NCBI GenBank assembly: GCA_963729625.1
Contig: CAVSOU010000010.1
Coordinates: 704,001-768,000 of the forward strand
DNA: 64,000 nucleotides
Direction of reading: 5' to 3'
From: an uncultured bacterium
GTDB taxonomy: Bacteria; Chloroflexota; UBA5177; JANWHV01
Made by a program: the position numbers and the translations under genes. Below are positions 243 through 33,392 of this stretch, in pieces (the stretch's first letter is position 1; every line of letters starts with the position of its first letter). The notes beneath the pieces were generated by a model that was not told the DNA's origin, did not search any database, and was given only the letters and a program-made list of their open reading frames with translations.

Positions 243-2120
243 ATGACCATCGAGCACGCCATCGATTCAGCCCCCGATGGGTCGCACGGCGCTGTATTGC
301 GCGTGCGCTGCACAAACGATCAGGCTGTCGCTCTATCCCGGCTGCTCGGGAGGCTGTATCCGGGCAGGCGCCACACATTCCTTCCGCTGCTCGGCGCCGG
401 CTTCACACATAGCTGCTCGATACCGGATACGCCAAACAACCTGCGAAGGAAATGGCCCGCTATTGCAGTGCAGCTCCTGCTCGGCTCCACCACCAAGTGC
501 GCGGAACCTGGCGAGGCTCCGGCCCTGGATGGCGTGTCGCAGTCGGATGGGACGTCACACGATGCTCTGGCGCGCCAGCAGTCGCGCGAAGGCGACGCTC
601 GTGGGAGCGTCGTGAGAAGGCCGCGGACCTGGGCGACCGGTGGAACAGGAAGCGGTGGTGACATTCCGCCGCCGGGAGAAAGCGCGTCGAAACAGCTGCG
701 TCGCGCGCGACACCTACCGGCCGGCGAACGACGTATTGTACTTGAGCGCCTGTTCAACCAGGGTGATGCGTCGGCCTTCGAGGCGGGTTTGCTGCTGGCC
801 CAGACCCTCGAGGAGATGGGCGCATGGAACGAGAGCCTGGCGGTCTACGATGCGTTGGAGCGGCAGCCGCCGGGGCGCCAGGGCGTGGTGCGCGCTGGCC
901 GCCTCCGAGCCCTCTCCTCACTCGGCAAACATGACGAGGTGATCGCGCAGGTCGCGATTGACGAGAGTTCGCCGGCCCTGCGCGGGTTGCTTGGTCTGGC
1001 GTTAGCGGCTACGAAGGGCGTCGAAAGCGCGTTGGCGCATCTGGAATACTGCTGGCAATCGTCGGAGGCCAGCACGACGAGCGTGGCGCTGGCTCTGGCG
1101 CGCATCTACTGGCAATGTGGCAGGTACCACGAAGCCGCCGCGCCCTATCGCCTAGTGTTTGACCGCGCACCAGCAGATCTCGCGCAGGCCGATTATGCCG
1201 CCTCTGATTTCGCGGCGATCATCGAGCTCGCGCGATTGGGTGAATACGACGATCTCGCCAGCGGGCGACTGCTGGATTGCCTGATTGCCTACTGCAATCG
1301 CGCCACCGAAGAAGATCGAGCGAGCGATCGGGCGCATCAACTGGTGCTGTCTGGCTTGGAGATTGGCCGCCGCCTGCGCGATTCCGCGCGCCTGCTGCGC
1401 GCGTACCAGCTCGTCGTTGACGATCTTCTGCAGCGGCGCGAAGGCCATCGGCTTGTCGAGCTCATCGAGGCAGCAGCAACCGACTTCCGACGAGGCCTGC
1501 TGACGGCCACCCAGCGTTTCGACATTCTCGACGCCATTACAGACAATCTGGCGGACTATCCGCAACTCCTTCGCCCGTCCCTGATCGAGAACTATGAGGA
1601 CCTTCTGCGGACTGCGCTGGAGCGCGACCAGGGAGAAGCCGGCCCGTTGCCGCAAGAATCCCGAGAGATCTACCGATCCCTGTACGACCTGGATAGGCGC
1701 AATCCGCTCTGCGTGCGTTATCGGCGTATGGCCACACTGCGCCGGGCGGGCAGCGGTGAGCGTGCCGATGCTCAGCGGGATCACGTGGCTCTCACCGGAA
1801 AACGCGTCGCTATCATCGGCGGTCACGACAGCACGAGGCTCAGGGTCCGCGAACGGCTCGAGCGCTGGGGAGTGCGCGTCGACGAAGTTGCGCCCGCGAC
1901 CAGTGGTCGCGTGAGCGAGCGCGAGATACTCGATCGCGTGCGTCTGAGCGATCTGATCCTTCTGATTGTCACGTATATGGGTCACGACATGAGCACAATC
2001 GTGGGCAACCTGGCGGCCCGCGGCGCTCTGTCCGGGCAAGTCCTCTCTGTCGATTGTCGTGGAGCGACAGGAGTGACGCGAGCCATTGCCGAGTGGGCGG
2101 ACGCACTTCACGCCCGTTGA
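243..2120 (+). CDS. TPR-like helical repeat protein with C-terminal DUF2325-like (flavodoxin/receiver-like) domain
   Basis: Long ORF (track 219..2120); ATG at 243 preferred. TPR-like segments (LALARIYWQCGRYHEAAAPY); C-terminus GKRVAIIGG...DLILLIVTYMGHDMS...CRGATG resembles DUF2325. Confidence 0.7.
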   Translation: MTIEHAIDSAPDGSHGAVLRVRCTNDQAVALSRLLGRLYPGRRHTFLPLLGAGFTHSCSIPDTPNNLRRKWPAIAVQLLLGSTTKCAEPGEAPALDGVSQSDGTSHDALARQQSREGDARGSVVRRPRTWATGGTGSGGDIPPPGESASKQLRRARHLPAGERRIVLERLFNQGDASAFEAGLLLAQTLEEMGAWNESLAVYDALERQPPGRQGVVRAGRLRALSSLGKHDEVIAQVAIDESSPALRGLLGLALAATKGVESALAHLEYCWQSSEASTTSVALALARIYWQCGRYHEAAAPYRLVFDRAPADLAQADYAASDFAAIIELARLGEYDDLASGRLLDCLIAYCNRATEEDRASDRAHQLVLSGLEIGRRLRDSARLLRAYQLVVDDLLQRREGHRLVELIEAAATDFRRGLLTATQRFDILDAITDNLADYPQLLRPSLIENYEDLLRTALERDQGEAGPLPQESREIYRSLYDLDRRNPLCVRYRRMATLRRAGSGERADAQRDHVALTGKRVAIIGGHDSTRLRVRERLERWGVRVDEVAPATSGRVSEREILDRVRLSDLILLIVTYMGHDMSTIVGNLAARGALSGQVLSVDCRGATGVTRAIAEWADALHAR

Positions 2121-30061: not shown

Positions 30062-30421
30062 TCAGAAGGAAAGAGTCTGAGCGCCGGTGACCATTTCTTC
30101 TACGGCCTTGGCGGCACCGACGACTTGCGCCCCCTCGATCAGCTGTTCAGCCGTGATATTGCGCGGCTTGATACAGGCGCCGCAGACCCACAGCTTGCCG
30201 CCGTTCGCGATGAACTTCTCAATCAATTCCTTGATCGGCGGATAGCCATCTGCCTGTAAGCCGTCGACATAGCCCTTCGTCGCCACCCAGGGGCCATCAA
30301 TGCTGAGCAGCACGATTGCTTCCTGGTCAGAGCTAAGCGCCGCGTTCGCAATCACGAAGCTGAGCGTGGCTCGTTCCAGGTTATCCTTGCCGTTGGTGTT
30401 GTTGATCAGCACCTTGCCCAT
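30062..30421 (-). CDS. DsrE family sulfur-relay protein
   Basis: 119 aa; ERATLSFVIANAA, LSIDG, GGKLWVCGAC...RNI, GAQVVGA. Confidence 0.9.
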   Translation of the reverse strand: MGKVLINNTNGKDNLERATLSFVIANAALSSDQEAIVLLSIDGPWVATKGYVDGLQADGYPPIKELIEKFIANGGKLWVCGACIKPRNITAEQLIEGAQVVGAAKAVEEMVTGAQTLSF

Positions 30422-30669
30422 GTGCGCACTCCCTCGCTAGCGGCTAGCCCTTACGACGCACCAAATAGCGCTCGTCCTCGTGTTGAATCAATGTATGTCC
30501 CGTCAAGCGACACCACGCCGGCAGATCGACGGCCACGCTCGGCTCGGTGGCGCGGATCTCCACGGTCTGGCCCGGCAGCATCTTGCGAATAAGCGTAGCG
30601 ATATCATCCAGGGGCCCGTCGCCGCAACCCTTGTTGCCGGCATCGTAAAATGCGTCTGCGCCGAAGCGT

Positions 30670-30684
30670 GGTTGAATCGCTCTG
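30670..30684. repeat. target-site duplication, left copy
   Basis: GGTTGAATCGCTCTG, identical to 32254-32268. Confidence 0.93.
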
Positions 30685-30722
30685 TGTTGGGGGCAGCGAC
30701 ATGTTGCACAGGCATGACCCTC

Positions 30723-31790
30723 CTACAGGAGCCAGAAGCGGGCGGCGAACTCGTTGGGGGAGAGTCCCGGCAGTGCCAAGCCTTGGTGCGGGCGGTCATT
30801 GTAGGCGACGCGGAATTGCTCGAGGAGCGTCTCCAAGGCCGCAGTGTTGCTCCAGGCGTGCTCGGCCAGCCAGATTTTGAGCGTGCGTACGAATCGTTCC
30901 GCGATCCCGTTCGACGCGGGCCGATGCCGGGCTATGAGCACGTGCACGAAGTCCTCGTCCTGGGCGAACTGCGCGAACTGCTGGGCGGTGAAGTGGCAGC
31001 CGCGGTCGGAGATGAGGAACTGGAGCTGCGCGGGGAGGAGGTCGCGCAAGGCGGCGACGACCACCTCGGCGGTGACCTTGGGACCGGCGACGAAGAGCGG
31101 GAGACCCGCGCACTGCCGGGTACAGTTATCGGTCACGACGAGGATGGCGATCCAGGGTGGCCTGGCCAGCTGCGCTGGCGGAGGCTGCAGGCGCTCCAGC
31201 GCAGCCTGCCAGGCGGCATCCTCCTCGCGCCGCCGGGCCAGGACAGCCTGGCGCTGATCGTGCAGCAGAAGCCAGCGGTCCTGTGCGGCCAGATAGCGGG
31301 CATACTGGCGCGGCGACCACTGTTCCGGCCGCAGCTGTGCCTGCCGCTCGCGGCAGACGGCCTCCCAGAGCGCATCCTCTTGCCGGCGCTGCTGGAGGAT
31401 CTGCAGCCGTTGCGCCGCCAGCATCCGCTGCTGCTGCCGCGCTGGCTGCTCCACCGCTGGCTGGCGCGGGTGCCGGGTGGTGCGTGCCGCCTTGCGCGGT
31501 GGCGTGCGCGGCGCGGATCGCCACACGAACTCCCGCATCGCCTGCGCATAGGCCAGCTCGGCGTCCTCGAACACCTGGCCAGGCCAGGCCCGTTCCGCCG
31601 CCGCACCCTCCCGTGGTCCATAGATGACGAGCCGGCCCGATGACCCGCTCACTGCCGGCAGGCGTACCGCCGCCTCGTGCACGGCGGGCACGAAGCACAG
31701 GTCCACGTTCAGGGTTTGGCCGGGCTCGTCGGCCGTGCGGTTCTCGCCGCTTGGCCCCCCCTTTTCACCGGTGGTGCCGGTGCGGGCCAC
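30723..31790 (-). CDS. transposase catalytic ORF (rve/DDE) with a large insertion
   Basis: LNVD ... LISDRGCHF ... SNGIAERFVRTLK (D-35-E) ... YNDRPHQGL. Confidence 0.88.
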   Translation of the reverse strand: MARTGTTGEKGGPSGENRTADEPGQTLNVDLCFVPAVHEAAVRLPAVSGSSGRLVIYGPREGAAAERAWPGQVFEDAELAYAQAMREFVWRSAPRTPPRKAARTTRHPRQPAVEQPARQQQRMLAAQRLQILQQRRQEDALWEAVCRERQAQLRPEQWSPRQYARYLAAQDRWLLLHDQRQAVLARRREEDAAWQAALERLQPPPAQLARPPWIAILVVTDNCTRQCAGLPLFVAGPKVTAEVVVAALRDLLPAQLQFLISDRGCHFTAQQFAQFAQDEDFVHVLIARHRPASNGIAERFVRTLKIWLAEHAWSNTAALETLLEQFRVAYNDRPHQGLALPGLSPNEFAARFWLL

Positions 31791-32194
31791 AATCCAGCGT
31801 CACGCAGGATGCGCTTGACCGTATTCGGACTGACCAGCGGTACCCACCCCTGCGCCTTCGCCAGCTCATCCGCCAGCCGTTGCTTGCCCCAGCTGGGCTG
31901 CTCCTCTCGGAGGGCGATCACCTGGGCCTCCACCGCCGCGGCGGTCCGGTGCGGCTGGTGCGGCACGCGGCTGCCGAACCGTGCGAGGCCGGTGTAGCCG
32001 TCCGCGAGGAAGCGCGGCTTCCAATAATAGAAGGTGCGTCGGCCGACGTGGGCCACCCGACAGGCCTGCGCGACATCGCCCGTGGCTTGCCAGGTTTCGA
32101 ACAAGAGTCGCCGTTGCGACGGCGTGGTGAGGGGGAAATAGGTGCGTGCCATGCGCTTCGCCTTGTGCCTAGCCAGGAATCGTGCCTGTTCCAC
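31709..32194 (-). CDS. transposase N-terminal HTH ORF
   Basis: VAQACRVAHVGRRTFYYWKPRF, WGKQRLADEL, VSPNTVKRIL; overlaps the catalytic ORF, which lies in the -1 frame, at GAAAAGGGGGGG. Confidence 0.85.
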   Translation of the reverse strand: MEQARFLARHKAKRMARTYFPLTTPSQRRLLFETWQATGDVAQACRVAHVGRRTFYYWKPRFLADGYTGLARFGSRVPHQPHRTAAAVEAQVIALREEQPSWGKQRLADELAKAQGWVPLVSPNTVKRILRDAGLWPAPAPPVKRGGQAARTARPTSPAKP

Positions 32195-32253
32195 CTGGTC
32201 CGCTCAGCATGGCACATCCGACGCTATGGTGCAACCTGCTCCTGCCCCCAACA

Positions 32254-32268
32254 GGTTGAATCGCTCTG
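32254..32268. repeat. target-site duplication, right copy
   Basis: GGTTGAATCGCTCTG directly after the terminal ACA. Confidence 0.93.
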
Positions 32269-32489
32269 TTGGCGCCTGGCTCATACACTTGCATACTAAT
32301 GACTGCTCTCCCAGTTCGCAGTAGGCTGATGCGCTACCGCCCATACATTGATATACGGAACCCTCAGCCGGTTGGATTGCCAAATACGCTACCATGTTGG
32401 TTGAATTGTTTCCGCATGTCGGGTGACGATCGCCACCATGGTACCATGTGCCGAGTCGCAGGACGTAGAGTTCGTGAAGAGGAGATGGC

Positions 32490-33392
32490 GTGCAATCATC
32501 GATCGATCGTTGCCCCGTCTGTGGCCGTATCCACGACGGACCTGAAGGCCGGCGTATCTTCTCCCGCCTGTGGGTGTACACCAACTACGATTGCAATCTC
32601 TGCTGCTCCTACTGCCTGGTCTCGTCCACCCCATCCGCGGATCGCCGGCGCTTGTCGCGTGGCGACTTCGAACGGCTGATCGACGAGGCATCGGACATCG
32701 GCTTTGACGAGGTGTTTCTCACCGGCGGCGAGCCGGCCCTGTTGCCGGATATCACGGATATGCTTGGCTACGCGCTTCTCCGGATGCCCGTGACGCTGAT
32801 GACCAACGGCATGCTCTGGAAAGGTGCGCGCCTGGCGCGACTCGAGTCGCTGTTGCGGATGCCGGAGAGCACCGATTTGACCTTGCAGACCAGTCTGGAC
32901 AGCGGCAGTCCGGAGATCCATGATCGCAATCGCGGCGCGGGAACCTGGGCCAAGACGGTCGCAGGTATTCGGCGGTTGCAGGAGCGCGGCTTCCGTGTGC
33001 GCGTTGCCGCGACAACGTTGGCGCAGAACCAGCACGACCTTGAGGAATGGTCCTCATTCCTTGAGACGCAGGGTGTCACATCCGAGTATCGGCTCGTGCG
33101 CGATCTGGTGGCGCGGGGCGAGTCGAGCGAGGGAGCCGTGCTCACGGGCGAGGACATCGTGCCGGAAATGACGGTCGACGTGAGCGGCGTCTATTGGCAC
33201 CCAATCATGGGCGAGGATCTGCGCCTAACGGAGACCGTCTTCCCGCTTCGGAGTGCCGCCGAGCAGCTTGCTCGACTCTGGCATACGATCAGCGGCAAGG
33301 ACAGAGCTTCGGTGTTCCGCTGTGGCCCTGATCGAGCGGCAGCCGAGGAAGCAGACGGCGACATCTCGCTGCTGAAGATCGCATCTCATTGA
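32490..33392 (+). CDS. radical SAM protein, MoeX/Rv1681-like
   Basis: CNLCCSYC (CxxxCxxC), LTGGEP, TNG, SLDS, HDRNRGAGTW, PEMTVDVSGVYWHP; extra N-terminal CPVC. Resemblance to MoeX is from memory. Confidence 0.88.
   Translation: MQSSIDRCPVCGRIHDGPEGRRIFSRLWVYTNYDCNLCCSYCLVSSTPSADRRRLSRGDFERLIDEASDIGFDEVFLTGGEPALLPDITDMLGYALLRMPVTLMTNGMLWKGARLARLESLLRMPESTDLTLQTSLDSGSPEIHDRNRGAGTWAKTVAGIRRLQERGFRVRVAATTLAQNQHDLEEWSSFLETQGVTSEYRLVRDLVARGESSEGAVLTGEDIVPEMTVDVSGVYWHPIMGEDLRLTETVFPLRSAAEQLARLWHTISGKDRASVFRCGPDRAAAEEADGDISLLKIASH

Follow-up and report, generated by a model that had tools for sequence, protein, structure and literature searches.

An IS481-related insertion sequence from Chloroflexota with a split, probably slippage-fused transposase and a long insertion in its catalytic core

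What kind of insertion sequence (IS) carries a transposase gene split between two reading frames together with a 177-residue insertion in its catalytic core, and how are the two frames joined? The question is raised by an element at positions 30685–32253 (minus strand, 1,569 bp) of a 64,000-nucleotide stretch, here called the window, of contig CAVSOU010000010.1 from an uncultured Chloroflexota bacterium (assembly GCA_963729625.1). An initial annotation of the window had read here an unusual IS with TGT..ACA ends, an exact 15-bp direct repeat, helix-turn-helix (HTH) and catalytic open reading frames (ORFs) offset by −1, catalytic residues D262 and E298, and an insertion of about 170 amino acids (aa) with an internal repeat in the DDE core; it proposed a distinct IS subgroup in which the insertion may set the staggered cut or the target choice. 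We find that the description of the element and its standing as a distinct subgroup hold, whereas the duplication is not unusual, the simple −1 frameshift falls short of what the relatives require, and the role given to the insertion stays a conjecture. In our view, the region is probably one intact, recently inserted copy of an IS481-related, mainly chloroflexotal clade, whose DDE transposase would most likely be fused by slippage and bears an insertion between strands β1 and β2 of its core.

The element, its empty site and its catalytic core

The element is bounded by imperfect inverted repeats of 25 nt that are 84% complementary and run TGT...ACA in the IS orientation. The transposase-proximal repeat, IRL, which starts with TGT, lies at 32229–32253, and the transposase-distal repeat, IRR, which ends in ACA, at 30685–30709, both on the minus strand. 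An exact direct repeat of 16 nt (30670–30685 and 32254–32269) flanks them; the final T of this repeat doubles as the initial T of TGT, which leaves a target duplication of 15 bp, with one copy beside the right end (IS orientation) at 30670–30684 and the second at 32254–32268. This repeat exceeds chance, and a genome of the same genus proves it to be a true target duplication. The IS interrupts a tusA-like gene at about codon 14, leaving its 3′ part at 30444–30684 and its 5′ part, the first ∼14 codons, at 32254–32294 (both minus strand), and the translations of the two flanks both contain the five codons of the duplicated stretch. In the same-genus genome (G001, locus L086), the orthologue is uninterrupted, 88 aa long and 92% identical over the matched part, and it is flanked by the same DsrE-like gene and the same radical S-adenosylmethionine (SAM) gene as in the window. 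When the DNA is aligned, the two flanks of the window join on this orthologue with the 15-nt stretch present once and a length difference of zero. Both halves of the tusA-like gene are still open, so the insertion is recent enough for that.

Two ORFs fill the element. ORF1, the HTH DNA-binding part, spans 31709–32194 (minus strand; 161 aa from the first GTG) and matches Pfam HTH_32 (E 7e-14) and positions 1–112 of the NCBIfam IS481 model, with a near-threshold match to the leucine zipper model LZ_Tnp_IS481 (21.7 bits against a cut-off of 22.2). Its real start is likely the ATG at 32152, as judged from relatives in which the equivalent Met is the N-terminus. ORF2, the DDE catalytic part, spans 30723–31790 (minus strand; 355 aa from GTG), with Pfam rve_3 above its cut-off, rve just below, and NCBIfam IS481 as the top match. 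Its catalytic codons, on the minus strand, are D30 (31701–31703), D262 (31005–31007) and E298 (30897–30899), and K305 follows seven residues past the glutamate. All four residues are invariant in an alignment of 25 rows, and D262, E298 and K305 are also invariant in a second alignment, of 72 rows.

To place these residues in a fold, ORF2 was modelled by AlphaFold2 with 72 homologues, giving a mean predicted local distance difference test score (pLDDT) of 71.8. The model opens with a strand at 25–35 that carries D30 and continues through a poorly ordered loop, short helices at 70–75 and 81–92, and two long helices at 116–152 and 160–201 (pLDDT about 90), before strands at 213–221, 226–229 and 232–235. 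What follows completes an RNase H fold, in which D262 ends the strand 256–262 and E298 starts the helix 296–309. A Foldseek search of the PDB with this model returned 58 matches at E ≤ 0.001, with TnsB and the integrase cores of foamy-virus, lentiviral and avian origin in the lead. In the VIA-align alignment to the integrase of prototype foamy virus (PFV), model residues 20–334 lie on chain residues 118–257 (Z 13.5, root-mean-square deviation 2.7, 135 aligned), and in the HIV-1 integrase chains model residue 23 is aligned to chain residue 57; by these offsets, D30 of the model corresponds to D128 of PFV and D64 of HIV. The model and the rve_3 match thus share the features of the retroviral-integrase-like (rve) DDE superfamily, namely, an RNase H fold with one aspartate on β1, another after β4 and the glutamate on the next helix.

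The same alignment sets 315 model residues against 140 integrase residues, and the surplus is the segment 36–212. We therefore place an insertion of 177 aa, encoded at 31155–31685 (minus strand), between β1 and β2, close to the size of about 170 aa first estimated. It opens with a conserved motif block, LPAVSGSSGRLV followed by WPG.VFED..Y..AM..FV, and continues with a duplicated long helical hairpin, in each helix of which the motif R.QED..W is conserved once (both blocks in the 25- and 72-row alignments). The internal repeat reported for the helical stretch proves to be a duplication that relates the two long helices to each other (24 aa, 46% identity; E 2e-5, calculated for this pair alone), and a 30-nt repeat of 73% accompanies it in the DNA. 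The hairpin is predicted to be about 55 to 65 Å long. A natural in-frame homologue of 476 aa (locus L020), modelled with 78 rows at a pLDDT of 84.6, gives the architecture of a whole protein: two HTH domains, a disordered linker that holds the slip site, β1, the insertion, and the rest of the core, with insertion helices of 46 and 42 residues at a pLDDT of ∼96.

Across the family, the insertion measures 164 to 190 aa in the 30 intact loci in which both borders were matched by pattern, the first-border pattern having missed 14 further intact loci. A profile of the insertion found 268 cluster representatives at E ≤ 0.001 (202 at 1e-10 and 68 at 1e-30) among 1.84 billion. In the best 150 of these, it lies at residues ∼35–215 of proteins of ∼350 aa, at ∼160–340 of proteins of ∼480 aa, or in fragments, and among these 150 no case of the module in another protein context was seen. 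A search of the ESM Atlas with the insertion gave no usable match.

The interrupted gene has features of its own. The strain may have lost the function of this tusA-like sulfur carrier, in which a GCGDGP motif replaces the usual Cys-Pro motif (window 30062–30684 and 32254–33392; L086 1465–2113). In both genomes, the gene adjoins the DsrE-like gene and lies opposite the radical-SAM gene. Elsewhere in the host assembly (5.4 Mb in 21 contigs, 87% complete), we found three short related fragments besides this one full copy. At locus L002 of G000:C6 (about 1500–1800), a related element survives as a relic: ∼300 nt of its transposase-proximal end are 78% identical, and the first ∼65 codons of its ORF1 now lead, without a change of frame, into a 348-aa ORF that resembles a SAM methyltransferase (649–1695, minus strand). 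The ends of other IS481-like genes of the same genome were also inspected and yielded no convincing inverted-repeat or duplication pairs.

Related elements and the site where the frames meet

A protein search with ORF2 returned 2,719 proteins at E ≤ 0.001 among 8,000 scored. The best 120 of these cover mostly 80 to 100% of the query, insertion included, and the closest database proteins start in the ORF2 frame; the names of those sourced from NCBI stop at “transposase InsO family protein.” In the output of gene callers, such an element appears as two products, an HTH protein and a fragment assigned to the “InsO family.” From a scan of species-representative genomes, which gave 140 relatives, we kept 80 loci, all of them from metagenome-assembled genomes (MAGs), whose short contigs may be mis-binned. 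By their record labels, 59 belong to Chloroflexota lineages, 7 to archaea, and 14 to other or unnamed bacteria. The archaeal-binned members (L067–L070, L074, L075 and L083) come from ANME-1/Methanophagales, Methanoperedens, Thermoplasmata and others, and one of them, L070, has both the terminal repeat start seen in bacterial copies and a 15-bp duplication; together they suggest either transfer between Chloroflexota and archaea or mis-binning. On plasmids, a tblastn search with ORF2 found no family member among 72,556 records, 4 of which match the C-terminal core alone at 32 to 34% identity.

Most relatives have recognizable ends. A TG...CA inverted-repeat pair, taken as at least 14 of 20 positions matching at the expected distance, occurs in 55 of the 67 loci examined, nearly all with TGTA.. 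ends, and delimits elements of 1,459 to 1,651 bp. These 55 carry duplications of 15 bp in 21 cases and of 16 bp in 4, two of the latter with one mismatch, i.e., 15 to 16 bp in 25 of 55; of the other 30, 5 have matches of 4 to 7 bp that may be due to chance, and 25 have none, some of these elements filling their whole contig. The length of the duplication is, judging from these copies, a trait of the family, some members of which moved recently. Four copies in particular (L043, L046 and L050 of one MAG and L049 of another) are 98.6 to 99.1% identical, sit in unrelated flanks with different 15-bp duplications, and are all of the +1 type described below, which indicates a recent burst and shows that frameshifted copies transpose. 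A further copy in the first of these MAGs, L045, has lost 2 nt in comparison and is thereby placed in the opposite frame class. By eye, many of the 15-bp duplications are rich in A/T over the 4 to 5 positions at either end and richer in G/C in the centre, a pattern that hints at a bendable or symmetric target.

In the window, ORF1 and ORF2 overlap by 82 nt, with ORF2 in the −1 frame of ORF1, as first reported. The overlap surrounds a slippage-prone purine run, A4G7, at 31756–31766 (minus strand), where one extra nucleotide joins the frames: adding it in silico creates an open frame of 493 aa. The four closest relatives, which come from independent metagenomes and are 55 to 78% identical, the nearest among them at 72 to 78% aa identity, read A4G7, A5G6, A6G5 and A4G7 at this place, keeping 11 unbroken purines while the A/G boundary shifts, and share the same frameshift wherever the contig permits the test. 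A sequencing error at the run of the window is, from this comparison, very unlikely, and the possibility that such an error in the G run had merely split a single ORF is not borne out; we read the frameshift as programmed.

Extended to the 63 loci in which both ORFs can be followed across the junction, the comparison gave, by tblastn frames, 26 loci of the −1 type, 26 of the +1 type and 11 in frame. A stricter test, in which no fewer than 440 aa had to be open once 1 nt was added or removed at the run, found 19 loci that need one more nucleotide, 18 that need one fewer, 9 in frame and 17 broken or partial. Two of the 9 in-frame calls, L053 and L063, contradict the tblastn frames, because alternative frames stand open in GC-rich DNA, and 7 loci are truly in frame; the 478-aa ORF of L106 (292–1728), which lacks the HTH part, exemplifies such an open alternative frame. 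In GC-rich hosts, the ORF2 frame may be open far upstream of the slip site (L106, P0002), and gene callers there give proteins of 390 to 480 aa whose N-terminal third is the HTH gene read out of frame and which can be mistaken for fused transposases. A genuine HTH domain is present in one of the 120 best homologues, P0097 (486 aa).

A purine run of at least 6 stands at the homologous place in 55 of the 63 loci, including nearly all the frameshifted ones, as A6 to A9 or as A4–7 followed by G5–7. It is absent from 5 of the 7 in-frame loci (L034, L059, L062, L070 and, by its frames, L064). Each of the three codon phases occurs at the start of the run, in 12, 3 and 11 loci of the −1 type and in 7, 3 and 16 of the +1 type. 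The commonest −1 form is A7, the commonest +1 form A9, and the in-frame relative L066 has A8. The A/G runs with at least 5 G are all of the −1 type, and their in-frame counterpart, L020 with A6G6, is one G longer. Thus, size, TGT ends, duplications of 15 to 16 bp, split ORFs and insertion recur together in dozens of related loci, as expected of the distinct subgroup that the initial annotation had proposed.

How the two ORFs may be joined

By analogy with IS3-type elements, ORF1 alone would yield a small HTH DNA-binding protein, and the active transposase would be an ORF1-ORF2 fusion of about 490 aa. The fusion would require the addition of one extra purine at A4G7, in the linker between the DNA-binding and the catalytic domain. 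We propose that RNA polymerase realigns on this run: the nascent RNA would slip back by one position, at the cost of a single G:T wobble at the A/G border, and one G would be added. The resulting protein would then act on the TGT...ACA ends through its core of the retroviral-integrase type (D30, D262, E298 and K305).

We consider such transcriptional slippage, with moderate confidence, the most likely mechanism at the run of the window. A run that is conserved in place, serves shifts in both directions and is bound to no codon phase is what polymerase realignment predicts and what tandem-tRNA −1 frameshifting does not, and the near-equal numbers of −1 and +1 relatives favour transcriptional slippage over −1 ribosomal frameshifting for the family as a whole. 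There are precedents for its parts: in the IS3 family element IS1447, about 16% of transcripts are reported to be changed in each direction at an A9 run, 7 A being sufficient (PMC6211511), and PMC5009743 describes both an IS of Roseiflexus with slippage on a heteropolymeric T5C5 run that depends on an adjacent nascent-RNA stem-loop and the insertion of a G at A6G3 in Sendai virus.

Several observations weigh against the reading given here. A4G7 is no homopolymer, and slippage of bacterial RNA polymerase on G runs is less well documented than on A/T runs. The element is present as a single full copy in a genome that is 87% complete, which leaves its activity in this host presumptive. Some of the frame calls come from loci labelled MFD, which we take to be long-read assemblies prone to homopolymer errors; when they are dropped, the stricter test gives classes of 15, 14 and 8, and the pattern holds. 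Finally, RNA structures near the site are no more stable than those of shuffled sequences, and the upstream stem shows no significant covariation across the family. In the window, folding around the run gave z-scores of −0.17 (45 nt upstream), −0.38 (70 nt downstream) and −0.47 (112 nt around), a scan of 30500–32450 against Rfam returned zero matches at E ≤ 1 and hence no Rfam frameshift element, and RNAalifold found no common stem beside the run in 14 junction regions.

A candidate nascent-RNA hairpin with a 6-bp stem and a 5-nt loop can be read from the sequence directly 5′ of the run (31767–31783, minus strand), with no support beyond chance. A stem drawn by hand between the conserved GCCGG codons and the bases that precede the run was likewise unproven and set aside: 68.6% of its cells are paired compared to 64.9% in shuffled sequences, and 44 of 500 shuffles reached that value. 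Of 50 distinct loci across the family, 26 have a predicted stem that ends at most 1 nt from the run, compared to 30% in shuffles and at other positions; such a stem is present in 9 of 11 loci with A/G runs and in 2 of 9 loci with A9. We regard this excess as a trend only and do not claim a hairpin.

The alternative that survives best, and one we consider possible but distinctly less probable, is classical programmed −1 ribosomal frameshifting as in IS3 and IS911, in which the mRNA is unaltered and the ribosome slips on the heptamer G_GGG_GGC, or in the P site, with A_AAA_AAA as the counterpart in relatives. Several facts fit it, and those on the heptamers count at the same time against polymerase slippage: ORF2 lies in the −1 frame, the run of the window contains G_GGG_GGC in phase as a heptamer of the form X_XXY_YYZ, and 11 of the 26 −1-type relatives have their A run at phase 2 and thus an A_AAA_AAA. 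It is, moreover, the textbook mechanism of the related IS3 family (PMC5009743). In half of the frameshifted relatives, however, joining the ORFs takes a +1 shift, at an A run in the corresponding place, so an IS3-like −1 frameshift is too simple a reading, and the passage on recoding in PMC5009743 states that +1 ribosomal frameshifting is known in no IS. The −1-type runs themselves occupy all three phases, the A/G boundary moves among close relatives so that a canonical heptamer is lacking in A6G5 at phase 0, and neither a stimulatory structure above chance downstream of the run nor a frameshift element among the Rfam families was detected in the searches above.

A second alternative places the switch in the DNA: copies with 11 purines, or with A7 or A9, would be “off” and would become active when replication, on rare occasions, slips to the length that is in frame (12 purines, or A8), in a manner resembling phase variation. 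The run lengths lend it some credit, as the in-frame length falls between those of the −1 and +1 states and the in-frame variants stand one base of the run away from frameshifted relatives (A6G6 in L020 against A6G5 and A5G6; A8 in L066 against A7 and A9). In-frame copies that bear a run are rare, though (L020, L066 and L069 of 63 loci), runs of 7 to 9 are short for efficient replication slippage, and the near-identical multicopy elements with distinct duplications are all frameshifted, which slippage at the level of expression fits better; we judge such a switch improbable. That the split is an assembly miscount or the mark of a decaying pseudogene whose true or ancestral gene was a single ORF, a thought invited by the G7 homopolymer and by a single-copy element in a 21-contig, 87% complete draft, is the least credible account and very doubtful indeed, because the same −1 layout recurs with A4G7, A5G6 or A6G5 on four metagenome contigs of independent origin as well as in the nearest database proteins, the fused form is confined to 1 of the 120 best homologues, and ORFs, inverted repeats and duplication are otherwise intact, with one added base restoring a clean frame.

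Transcriptional slippage at a purine run therefore stays our preferred account. One homologous site that has become fixed as −1, +1 and in frame is a natural experiment on transcriptional versus ribosomal recoding.

Placement, novelty and comparison with known systems

We file the clade as IS481-related and not as a tested member of IS481 proper. The NCBIfam model IS481 (NF033577) was the top match for ORF2 (77.3 bits), ORF1 (73.4) and the fused homologue P0097 (160.4), all under its cut-off of 224. The model also stays below that value in all 14 control genomes, 9 of which have a match; since none of them passes, the cut-off is strict. The IS3 model (NF033516) came second, with 70.9 and 44 bits against a cut-off of 160, and a match to ISNCY_2 (NCBIfam; E 1.3e-4) was confined to the HTH part of ORF1, ORF2 giving none.

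Taken singly, TGT ends, 15-bp duplications, split ORFs, slippage runs and the β1-β2 insertion site are already known. What looks new is their combination, the size and helical form of the insertion, and the presence of −1, +1 and in-frame states side by side at a single site. Literature searches on IS481 with frameshifting or with Chloroflexota, and on transcriptional slippage in insertion sequences, found no paper that describes the clade, which may nevertheless already be registered in ISfinder or TnPedia; slippage together with IS481 retrieved an unrelated paper only. We appear to be dealing with a sizeable, coherent and apparently undescribed IS481-like clade in Chloroflexota, with spill-over into archaea.

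Compared with the IS481 family, the likeness lies in the TGT...ACA repeats, in an HTH N-terminus with weak similarity to the IS481 leucine zipper, and in the lysine seven residues past the catalytic glutamate, where IS481 has K or R. In contrast, the family has a single ORF, whereas here the gene is split at a slippage run and truly in frame in 7 of 63 related loci, and the 177-aa insertion between β1 and β2 adds a further difference. IS481 elements are 950 to 1,300 bp long, and at 1,569 bp the present one exceeds that length by about the size of the insertion. Its 15-bp duplication falls within the 2 to 15 bp of the family (ISfinder range quoted in PMC10045372) and, contrary to the initial annotation, is not unusual for this lineage: Kojima and Bao (2023; PMC10045372) write that “not a few” IS481 members have duplications of ∼15 bp, naming ISMac4 and ISA0963-1, and give 15 to 17 bp for the IS1202 group and 15 to 16 bp for IS481EU.

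Similar in size and target duplication are the IS1202/ISTde1 elements, which, as described by Siguier et al. (bioRxiv 10.1101/2022.12.17.520857), have TGT ends, duplications of 15 to 17 bp, lengths of ∼1.3 to 2 kb and an HTH-plus-DDE transposase of 400 to 500 aa, occur in Chloroflexi, and include subgroup-specific indels proposed to influence the duplication length. The putative 493-aa fusion falls within that size range, although the gene is split here. An IS1202-type identity was considered and rejected, as the criteria of the same preprint include a glutamine at E+7, where K305 is invariant in our elements, and a single frame. The indels differ as well: that of ISTde1 comprises 5 to 10 aa between the second aspartate and the glutamate, whereas the one described here comprises 177 aa between the first aspartate and β2.

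With the IS3 family, including IS1447, the element shares two overlapping ORFs, an HTH-plus-DDE protein recoded in the linker between the domains, and TG...CA ends; for IS1447, the likeness extends to an A9 run with slippage in both directions (PMC6211511). We rejected an IS3 identity all the same, since IS3 duplications measure 3 to 5 bp compared to 15 bp here, the IS3 model scores under the IS481 model, the IS3 motif is of the A6G type and not A4G7, and the clade includes +1-type relatives. No IS3 member has been described with an insertion between β1 and β2, and the direction of the shift is fixed within one IS3 subgroup, whereas both directions occur in this clade.

For the run itself, the nearest parallels are the IS630-type element of Roseiflexus and the P gene of paramyxoviruses, which likewise combine a heteropolymeric run (T5C5 and A6G3) with a one-base change in the transcript; the former, according to PMC5009743, is also a chloroflexotal IS and needs an adjacent nascent-RNA hairpin. 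They differ in that the former is of another IS family and the latter depends on viral polymerases, a base is lost in Roseiflexus where the present element requires an added one, and slippage here is an inference beside a hairpin that does not rise above chance.

The insertion finds its closest counterpart in the Tc1/mariner transposases, and this bears on what it may do. That it sets the stagger of the cut or the choice of target, as initially suggested, is a conjecture. Duplications of 15 to 17 bp are reported in IS481, ISTde1 and IS481EU with no such insertion in their descriptions, and ISTde1 achieves them with a mere 5- to 10-aa indel (bioRxiv 10.1101/2022.12.17.520857), so the insertion is not needed for a wide stagger; this comparison draws on the published descriptions of IS481, IS1202 and IS481EU and not on ISfinder sequences, and the insertion status of ISMac4-type elements lies outside it. 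Kojima and Bao note that the three classes of duplication length in the IS481/IS1202/IS481EU lineage differ by about one helical turn, and state of their origin that there is “no clue” (PMC10045372). With their strict duplications of 15 to 16 bp and many intact copies, the present elements are good material for this question.

In Tc1/mariner transposases, a clamp loop is “inserted between beta1 and beta2 of the RNaseH-fold” (PMC4820933), that is, at the same site. In Mos1, this loop extends over the dimer as far as the linker and the ends of the transposon and aids assembly of the paired-end complex, and for Sleeping Beauty the base of the loop is modelled in the major groove of the target (PMC4820933). 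By this shared topology, which is the sole argument, the present insertion may contact other subunits in the synaptic complex, target DNA, or both. A bolder proposal is that the hairpin is a rigid strut or ruler, whose 55 to 65 Å would match about 15 to 16 bp of B-DNA, bridging subunits with active sites about 1.5 helical turns apart, and that the clade is without precedent among IS groups in that its members slip either way at one site. We hold this compound claim to be unlikely, but the ruler, if real, would be a structural answer to why IS481/IS1202/IS481EU-type enzymes make duplications of ∼15 bp instead of ∼5 bp. The two modules show no sequence relation and differ in build, a β-hairpin of ∼30 aa in Tc1/mariner against 164 to 190 aa with a long duplicated helical hairpin here. 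The clade thus offers a second, very different and functional-looking module at the β1-β2 site of a DDE core, a site that in Tc1/mariner governs synapsis and target capture.

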